Shown here piece by piece: positions 22,170-22,815 of a stretch of DNA of 64,000 bases. Under the pieces are notes generated by a model. It worked only from the letters and a program-made list of their open reading frames with translations. It searched no databases and had not been told where the DNA came from. The stretch covers positions 1 through 64,000 of the IMG/VR virus record IMGVR_UViG_3300045012_000181; one strand, given 5' to 3'. Numbering within the stretch: the stretch's first letter is position 1; the number at the start of each line of letters is the position of its first letter. This DNA comes from a virus. The position numbers were made by a program, and so were the translations under genes.

Positions 22170-22815
22170 TAAATTGCGGGCCAGCAGGCGCATTCTATAG
22201 AGCATCCAGAGTGCCTAGGCGGAACTCACCGCCCCCGCGGGCCCTTTTACGGCTTGCGCGTACAACATCTTCCATAAGATTTTTAGGGCCCATGCATGCG
22301 TGCCCCTATGTTGCACACGCCTGCAACTACAGGCCCACCATAAGATTCAGCTCGGACCCGAGTTTGGGCGCGCTACCCAAACATGGTCGGAGCCTTCTTG
22401 TGGTCGCCCTACGTTTCCTTGGGATATAGGAAGACAAGGCATTGTGGCACTTATGTGCGGGGCTCTGAATCAGAGTAACTCCCCACACGGGCCTGACAGC
22501 TATTTGTTCGCTGCCCACCGAATAGCGGGCTTTGGAGTACGACGAAGGGGTACAACACCCCTCCGGCATGACCCGCTTCCGGAACTAACAACGAACGCTT
22601 CGTGGTCCTCGGAAGAGCACGTCTTCTACGAGGACAATCGCACTATAATCGAGCCCGCTAGGAATCCTGAGACTCCTGCTTGGACGGCTCTTAGCACAAG
22701 TGCGATATCGGACCTTGATGACAGCGGTTTTTGTAACGGCTCCCGCTGGAGCATGTGGAGTCATGTGCGTTGGTTCACCCGGGGTGTTTTCGGGACCCTC
22801 AGGTGAATTTCTTTA
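22170..22815 (-). ncRNA. large structured ncRNA A (unclassified, about 570-640 nt)
   Basis: About 680-nt gap without a credible minus-strand ORF. End-closing helix 22739-22749 / 22181-22191, many nested helices, and crossing pairings. Strand inferred from flanking genes. Confidence 0.7.

Follow-up and report, generated by a model that had tools for sequence, protein, structure and literature searches.

A gap between two protein genes of the phage record IMGVR_UViG_3300045012_000181 (IMG/VR) very probably holds the gene of a real, stable and structured non-coding RNA (ncRNA), which we call RNA A. The DNA analyzed here, referred to as the window, comprises the first 64 kb (positions 1 to 64,000) of this linear virus record of 125,606 bp, whose completeness is estimated at 82%; all coordinates are those of the window. 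RNA A is found as a discrete RNA, without the neighboring genes, in three soil RNA libraries, and the gap in which it lies makes no protein. The best explanation overall, to which we give about an even chance of being right, is that of a phage gene for a stable, protein-free and compact minus-strand RNA of about 0.6 kb, which would be processed from a longer transcript and act in trans.

The minus strand of the window (GC content of about 55%) carries nearly all genes from 2 to 54 kb. A preliminary description of this DNA, made from the sequence alone, had called a gap of this size exceptional for the genome, and this proves right: on a crude gene map based on codon usage, the gap of 678 nt (gap A) and a second one close to it (gap B) are the two largest untranslated stretches in the minus-strand gene block. 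The two gaps and the extent of RNA A are as follows.

22150-22827, between two minus-strand genes: gap A, 678 nt, from the stop of a 104-aa gene to the start of an 83-aa gene
23143-23826, within the minus-strand block: gap B, 684 nt, directly upstream of the 104-aa gene and below the GNAT gene
22170-22796, minus strand: RNA A, proposed transcript of about 0.6 kb, with a supported 5′ end and a 3′ end placed provisionally before the ribosome binding site (RBS) of the next gene
22386-22796, minus strand: part of RNA A covered by metatranscriptome contigs that are 100% identical

The evidence that an RNA is made comes from a search of sequencing runs. It returned one DNA run containing all sampled words, a soil metagenome that holds the whole stretch and is probably the source sample, and soil metatranscriptomes containing 57, 54 and 19% of the words. 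These four runs, one of DNA and three of RNA from three studies, were placed on positions 20800-24800; two more runs (X5 and X6), which contain 4% of the sampled words, were not among the four. The DNA contig covers the entire interval with even depth. Each of the three RNA runs yields exactly two contigs within it, one on A and one on B. Those on A are 100% identical to the window and cover 22386-22792 (X2), 22421-22793 (X3) and 22645-22796 (X4); those on B cover 23186-23781, 23330-23779 and 23185-23572. No RNA contig was seen over the flanking genes in the three RNA runs (none on 20800-22385 or 22797-23184), an observation that is no proof of absence; because no flanking gene has such a contig, DNA carry-over cannot explain the RNA signal. 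The transcript that the preliminary description anticipated is thus present in RNA contigs from three soil metatranscriptomes.

The same contigs bear on the ends of the molecule. The upper-coordinate stops of the three A contigs agree within 5 nt (22792-22796), and the 5′ end of RNA A therefore lies near 22793-22796, not at 22815, the outer boundary that had been drawn before. The low-coordinate ends differ (22386, 22421 and 22645), move inward with falling contig depth and do not coincide with the limit of a domain, which leaves RNA A with an unmapped 3′ end and an unconfirmed 3′ third.

Coding potential was assessed with a codon-usage log-odds score trained on 20 long open reading frames (ORFs) of the window. 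All ORFs in gap A score negative (-0.05 to -0.28 per codon), the flanking genes scoring +0.12 to +0.36. The plus-strand ORF of 168 aa at 22300-22806 scores -0.05, and minus-strand ORFs, which are 80 aa or shorter, -0.12 and -0.15; in gap B, the score is likewise negative for every ORF. The 168-aa ORF has no match in Pfam or PHROG, and its sole match among 5.8 billion proteins is itself. It was in this frame that, according to the preliminary description, a conserved protein might be encountered; with a negative codon score, no family and no relative in that protein collection, none has emerged.

Folding of the minus strand provides the evidence for structure. The whole gap, taken as 681 nt, reaches a minimum free energy (MFE) of -288.7 kcal/mol on the minus strand (z = -6.4) and of -263.3 kcal/mol on the plus strand (z = -3.8), with 0 of 20 shuffles as good in either case. 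For a structural core of 382 nt the values are -173.5 kcal/mol (z = -7.3) on the minus and -146.3 kcal/mol (z = -4.1) on the plus strand, each with 0 of 100 shuffles as good, the minus-strand fold being better than that of the plus strand by 25-27 kcal/mol. In the minus-strand core the centroid (-172.4 kcal/mol) is practically equal to the MFE, positional entropy is near zero throughout, and about 70% of the bases are paired, with 18 G.U pairs. When 212 minus-strand segments of 600 nt were ranked by GC-corrected MFE, that of RNA A (22201-22800) was the second most negative and that of RNA B, the transcript of gap B, the fifth. The whole-gap z-score of -6.4, together with the missing coding signal and the presence of the RNA alone in metatranscriptomes, bears out the earlier proposal that a large RNA, structured and non-coding, is read from the minus strand. 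The predicted architecture is the following.

22325-22706, minus strand: structural core, 382 nt, well defined, as supported by MFE, centroid, z = -7.3 and entropy
22637-22706, minus strand: domain 1, an 8-bp helix AUCGCACU/AGUGCGAU around a branched hairpin (pair probabilities 0.6-0.99)
22605-22635, minus strand: domain 2, a 12-bp hairpin
22506-22596, minus strand: domain 3, an irregular long hairpin of 91 nt whose base helix and tip are each 10 bp long (p of at least 0.98)
22325-22501, minus strand: domain 4, a three-way junction of 177 nt, with CAGGCCC/GGGCCUG as its closing helix
22256-22320, minus strand: domain 5, an 11-bp helix around two small hairpins, less well defined
22178-22244, minus strand: domain 6, a 3′ branched hairpin, of low confidence and with high positional entropy

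Perfect 8-mer complements number 4 in RNA A, compared with 3.3 +/- 2.2 in shuffles. Because this count matches that of shuffles, single helices are not evidence by themselves, and the case for structure is therefore one of global energy and not of any one helix. With this in mind, the individual pairings of the preliminary description could be compared with the ensemble. Three of its helices (22699-706/22637-44, 22588-96/22506-14 and 22489-95/22330-36) are present as written and form part of the MFE structure, with pair probabilities of 0.6-1.0, mostly of at least 0.98. The helix by which it had closed the two ends (22739-49/22181-91) is complementary at 10 of 11 positions and has an ensemble probability of 0; if it is imposed, the structure becomes 5.1 kcal/mol less stable and the 22699-706/22637-44 helix is lost. 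As to the crossing 8-bp complement 22653-60/22523-30, the complementarity exists but the pseudoknot does not follow from it: the 3′ arm is held by a 7-bp helix (22577-71/22530-24) with a probability of about 1, and in the model the crossing segments would form a competing pairing, with no demonstrated pseudoknot. The H-type pseudoknot described at hairpin 22310-27 is not supported either, the hairpin competing with the 11-bp helix 22320-10/22266-56. In both pseudoknot candidates, local helices of much higher probability already occupy the segments.

Two details of the sequence of RNA A may be added. The hairpin at 22362-22382, within domain 4, has a self-complementary loop, AGCGC. A 10-nt word, AAUCUUAUGG, occurs twice on the minus strand (22338-22347 and 22272-22281), with a spacing of 66 nt; as chance would give about 0.2 such repeats, this is only mildly unusual. 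In the ranking of 600-nt segments, unusually negative GC-corrected MFE values were also obtained on the minus strand at 50401-51000 (-2.9 standard deviations), 51901-52500 (-2.4) and 53401-54000 (-2.1). These segments sit within 49.6-54.8 kb, where there are only short ORFs, and may correspond to further structured RNAs or to small early genes.

Gap B contains a twin of RNA A that shares its genomic setting, its expression pattern and its biogenesis signals.

23186-23781, minus strand: RNA B, 596 nt, adapter-flanked contig, z = -5.4, natural variants keep pairs

In one run, the RNA B contig carries the Illumina adapter directly at both ends (23781 and 23186), and the contigs of two other runs stop no more than 2 nt from them (23779 and 23185); RNA B is therefore a discrete molecule of 596 nt. 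A terminal stem (-29.4 kcal/mol, z = -3.3; 2 of 500 shuffles and 0 of 89 genomic control segments do as well) has one end of the molecule on each of its strands, with a 4-nt 3′ overhang like that expected from a staggered, RNase III-type double-strand cut. The RNA contigs contain four natural variants of B, three at predicted pairs and one in a hairpin loop. The three pair variants keep pairing (C-G to U.G, A-U to G.U and C-G to U.G), and the same changes read on the plus strand give A.C mismatches; this is weak, strand-specific evidence of selection for structure, for B and not for A. A and B share no sequence similarity, and the idea that they are paralogues was dropped.

Neither A nor B was found to have a sigma-70-like promoter or an intrinsic terminator at either of its ends. 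The flanks of RNA A are able to pair with each other.

22797-22830, minus strand: 5′ flank of RNA A, candidate processing stem, pairing with 22150-22190
22150-22190, minus strand: 3′ flank of the same stem, including AAGGAG, a good RBS for the 83-aa gene 7 nt ahead of the start codon (ATG at 22149)

With a duplex of -21.0 kcal/mol (z = -2.6; 11 of 500 shuffles and 4 of 89 genomic segments do as well), this stem encloses RNA A and takes in the RBS of the 83-aa gene. As no promoter or terminator of their own was found and the flanks pair, B ending in its terminal stem, A and B are read as excised from an operon transcript. The gene order on the minus strand, in the direction of transcription, is GNAT, RNA B, the GNAT-like 104-aa gene, RNA A, two small ORFs (83 and 76 aa) and a HisRS paralogue reduced to its catalytic core (mini-HisRS). 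RNA A would be co-transcribed with all of these as part of a polycistronic precursor and released by endonucleolytic cleavage in or beside the stem formed by its two flanks. It would then outlast the neighboring mRNAs, and we propose that it does so because about two thirds of its bases are paired. Once released, it may act in trans as an architectural RNA of the kind represented by the large phage RNAs ROOL and GOLLD, and would belong to an RNA and translation maintenance island of the phage.

Processing by RNase III is the way in which stable RNAs are obtained from operon transcripts in the case of rRNA precursors and of phage T7 early RNAs. The likeness to these systems lies in the long flanking stem that joins both ends and, for RNA B, in mapped ends on opposite strands with a 3′ overhang. 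The B overhang deduced from contigs differs, however, in being 4 nt and not 2, and the stem of RNA A is marginally significant, its 3′ end not being mapped.

RNA A was compared with the catalogued RNA families. At gathering thresholds, neither the window nor the other 61.6 kb of the record has a match in Rfam 15. When the filters were relaxed and matches up to E <= 10 admitted, the region 22000-23000 still showed only a chance match to GP20-b (15.8 bits, against a threshold of 36.2), and RNA B, also at E <= 10, only chance matches far below threshold to a plant miRNA and to ROSE. The covariance models of ROOL (RF03087) and GOLLD (RF02032, gathering threshold of 150 bits) do not match RNA A even at E <= 10; as a positive control, the same search scores the GOLLD RNA of another phage locus (L103) at 213.4 bits. 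Nor is there an Rfam 15 match at E <= 10 to OLE, HEARO, group I/II introns, RNase P or self-cleaving ribozymes, and no Rfam leader or riboswitch, T-box included, matches at RNA A. A regular-expression search for a tRNA-like T-arm (UUCRA loop) over 21600-23900 found none; a tRNA-His mimic serving the mini-HisRS was considered and dropped, neither A nor B having a T-arm or a His anticodon loop. The families among which the preliminary description would have looked for RNA A (ROOL, GOLLD, OLE, HEARO, introns, RNase P and tmRNA) were thus searched, and none matched. It had left the choice between a member of a class of the ROOL/GOLLD type and a new one; a catalogued class is set aside by the lack of Rfam matches at E <= 10, and RNA A matches no known family. 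Judged by its sequence, RNA A appears to be a large ornate phage RNA of a known kind whose family would be new and, for the present, a singleton.

ROOL, GOLLD and OLE are RNA-only homo-oligomers held together by kissing loops and A-minor contacts, and ROOL and GOLLD build RNA-only cages (PMC12286853). RNA A is like ROOL (Weinberg et al. 2017, PMC5737381; cryo-EM by Kretsch et al. 2025, PMC12286853) in its size class of about 0.6 kb, in being carried by a phage, in its many hairpins and multi-way junctions, in being non-coding and of unassigned function, and in lying among RNA- and tRNA-related genes. It differs from ROOL in having no model match at E <= 10 and no conserved family behind it, and in being seemingly cut from an operon transcript; cage formation is known for ROOL, whereas RNA A is known from its sequence and from contigs. 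GOLLD (PMC12286853) is likewise a large ornate phage RNA beside tRNA islands, and the GOLLD of L103 lies near a mini-HisRS, as RNA A does. Unlike it, RNA A has no match to the model, is shorter and has no embedded tRNA, the L103 GOLLD containing a tRNA-Lys. We propose only tentatively that RNA A, in a family of its own, acts in trans as an architectural RNA comparable to ROOL and GOLLD, and place the chances of this somewhat below even.

Relatives were sought both for the RNAs and for the genes around them. Searches of about 150 fetched loci by blastn and nhmmer gave no homologue of RNA A or B. A covariance model of the core (272 positions, 96 pairs) detects nothing outside its own locus, the best foreign match having 13.4 bits (E = 0.17); an exact scan for the junction motif gave 0 matches in IMG/VR and 3 chance matches in a genome collection, which the covariance model rejected. 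GenBank phages have no match for 21000-24000, and no second copy of RNA A was found in the 125.6-kb record. Used singly as queries, the 104-aa, 83-aa and mini-HisRS proteins found nothing in IMG/VR. A search with the COOH-NH2 ligase returned 12 distant IMG/VR loci (<= 41% identity), and one with a mini-HisRS alignment returned 46 IMG/VR loci (<= 51% identity) and 80 metagenome loci (<= 46% identity), the metagenome scan having used overly general motifs and returned only distant relatives. With alignments of the 104-aa family, one search gave nothing in IMG/VR, another nothing in the genome collection, and a third 5 distant IMG/VR loci. The closest relatives of the mini-HisRS (P0003-P0008, from JGI and Logan assemblies) are known as proteins only; P0003, P0004 (with its cluster mate P0169) and P0005 are 81-83% identical to it, P0006 and P0007 66-68%, and P0008 56%. 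The relatives of the 104-aa gene (P0122-P0125) show about 45-53% identity.

A conserved unit made up of a GNAT paralogue plus an RNA was considered as well and dropped: in distant relatives, the 104-aa family adjoins the ligase and genes then follow directly. In one such locus (L003), the gaps that follow the GNAT homologue show no folding beyond that expected by chance (z = -1.2 and -1.7). The gap right after this homologue (L003:11070-11140) ends in a tRNA-like 3′ half, with a T-arm, GGGUUCAAGUCCC, followed by an acceptor-like strand.

The genes that surround RNA A in the window are the following.

23827-24360, minus-strand block: GNAT gene, bounding gap B upstream
22828-23142, minus strand: gene upstream of RNA A, 104 aa, putative small GNAT-like protein, codon score +0.36, 47 relatives among representatives
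21898-22149, minus strand: gene downstream of RNA A, 83 aa, codon score +0.33
21013-21651, minus strand: HisRS paralogue, catalytic core only, 212 aa, Pfam tRNA-synt_His and tRNA-synt_2b, 144 relatives
15913-17451, 25597-26781, 24870-25265, 23827-24360, 22828-23142 and 18001-18645: peptide/metabolite-modification module

The stop codon of the 104-aa gene lies about 32 nt ahead of the 5′ end of RNA A. Its product is predicted to be GNAT-like by an Atlas model with a TM of about 0.7, which we take as a lead only, and contains the conserved motifs CCG..E.G and NPN(T/S)GN.VTLW. The 83-aa protein has no match in Pfam or PHROG. The mini-HisRS belongs to the same operon and lies 0.5 kb downstream of RNA A. 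The members of the module are two phiEco32-type COOH-NH2 ligases, a GGACT cyclotransferase, the GNAT, the 104-aa GNAT-like protein and a peptide deformylase, with the mini-HisRS alongside; RNAs A and B are insertions within this phiEco32-type peptide-modification module. The minus strand also carries an RNA-repair set formed by an RNA ligase (10134-11090), RtcB (32033-33205), a Ro60-like protein (39687-41081) and a DHH phosphoesterase (2387-3364), which resembles the bacterial rsr-Y RNA-rtcB grouping. ARAGORN gives 0 tRNA or tmRNA genes in the window and in the remainder of the 125.6-kb record.

A HisRS of about 200 aa that consists of the catalytic core only is widespread in large phages (IMG/VR loci L094-L139). 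It stands among tRNA genes (within 6 kb) in 33 of 46 IMG/VR phage loci, and tRNA-His (GUG) is often immediately beside it, for instance in L096, L105, L106, L111, L126 and L134. In L103, a GOLLD RNA (8392-8853, 213 bits) with its embedded tRNA-Lys (8455-8528) is located 1.8 kb downstream of the mini-HisRS homologue, inside a tRNA array. The phage studied here has a mini-HisRS but no tRNA gene in 125.6 kb, and it is RNAs A and B that precede the mini-HisRS.

The setting of RNA A within an operon whose genes all run in the same direction, together with the missing promoter and terminator and with a flank stem that covers the AAGGAG of the 83-aa gene, would also fit a cis-acting element, that is, a very long structured leader or spacer for the processing, stability or translation of the downstream genes (83 aa, 76 aa and mini-HisRS). 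The flank stem might hide the RBS until the transcript is cut, the stable RNA found in the libraries being then a by-product. To our knowledge, no leader needs anything like the roughly 600 nt and 200 base pairs present here. The arrangement is repeated in tandem by two RNAs of unrelated sequence (A and B), the RNA contigs show the excised RNA to accumulate with the mRNA undetected, and the comparison with Rfam leaders and riboswitches was negative; we consider a cis-acting role unlikely, even if it is the most probable of the alternatives to a trans-acting RNA. Slightly less probable still is that RNA A serves as a decoy or sponge, a bulk RNA occupying an RNA-binding defense or a nuclease of the host, or that it is a client of the phage's own Ro60/RtcB repair machinery. 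The genes for the Ro60-like protein, RtcB and the RNA ligase lie on the same strand, and the RNA contigs indicate that RNA A is more stable than the neighboring mRNAs; however, RNA A is about 10 kb from the RtcB gene and about 17 kb from that of the Ro60-like protein, neither A nor B offers a T-arm, a His anticodon loop or any recognizable mimic, and ARAGORN finds nothing.

A relic or selfish insert is a further possibility: RNA A might derive, for example, from a decayed intron or another mobile element, and fold well and be stable without any function for the phage. In favor of this, RNA A is lineage-specific, no RNA gap being present at that place in distant relatives that share the ligase and GNAT module, and two different inserts stand side by side. 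However, no model of a group I/II intron, of HEARO or of another mobile RNA matches at E <= 10, the 125.6-kb record holds a single copy, and a core z-score of -7.3 with near-zero structural entropy is not expected of a decaying sequence; this possibility has only a slim chance. An overlooked protein gene, be it the 168-aa ORF or one of those on the minus strand, is close to refuted and its probability negligible: a frame of 168 codons is indeed open on the plus strand, but it runs antisense to a uniformly minus-strand operon, its codon score is negative, as are those of the minus-strand ORFs (<= 80 aa), and it has neither a Pfam or PHROG match nor a relative among the proteins searched.

Several observations weigh against a processed, trans-acting minus-strand RNA, or limit how far it can be taken. 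As no homologue of RNA A was found, the fold has no covariation support and is derived from thermodynamics and a singleton sequence only. Distant relatives with the same ligase and GNAT module carry ordinary genes at the position of the RNA, and RNA A therefore looks like a lineage-specific insertion without a conserved partner gene. The RNA contigs span only 22386-22796, the 3′ third (22170-22385) being unconfirmed as RNA; moreover, Logan contigs, as opposed to reads, cannot show strand, exact ends or abundance, and RNA A is assigned to the minus strand from the folding asymmetry and the orientation of the genes. The three RNA studies correspond to one year and one habitat, and may be a single campaign. 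The flank stem of A is only marginally better than chance. Finally, any higher-order assembly of RNA A, like its action in trans, is to be taken as conjectural, the self-complementary loop AGCGC at 22362-22382 being the only hint of oligomerization and no more than a lead.

Only a handful of large protein-free RNAs are known from bacteria and phages, and after the cages of ROOL and GOLLD (PMC12286853) each new one is a candidate RNA architecture. Here, two unrelated RNAs of 0.6 kb stand in tandem, with direct RNA evidence for both, and it is they, not the surrounding genes, that persist in soil RNA. On a bolder view, to which we assign a low probability, A and B would found new families of large phage RNAs, be freed from the operon transcript by double-strand cuts, form ROOL/GOLLD-like particles either singly or jointly and, in a phage devoid of tRNAs, take beside the mini-HisRS the place, and perhaps part of the role, of the tRNA arrays and GOLLD of other phages. 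A phage that has a Ro60-like protein, RtcB, an RNA ligase and a stripped-down HisRS, and no tRNA, offers a natural system in which to study the role of large phage RNAs in translation or RNA repair during infection.

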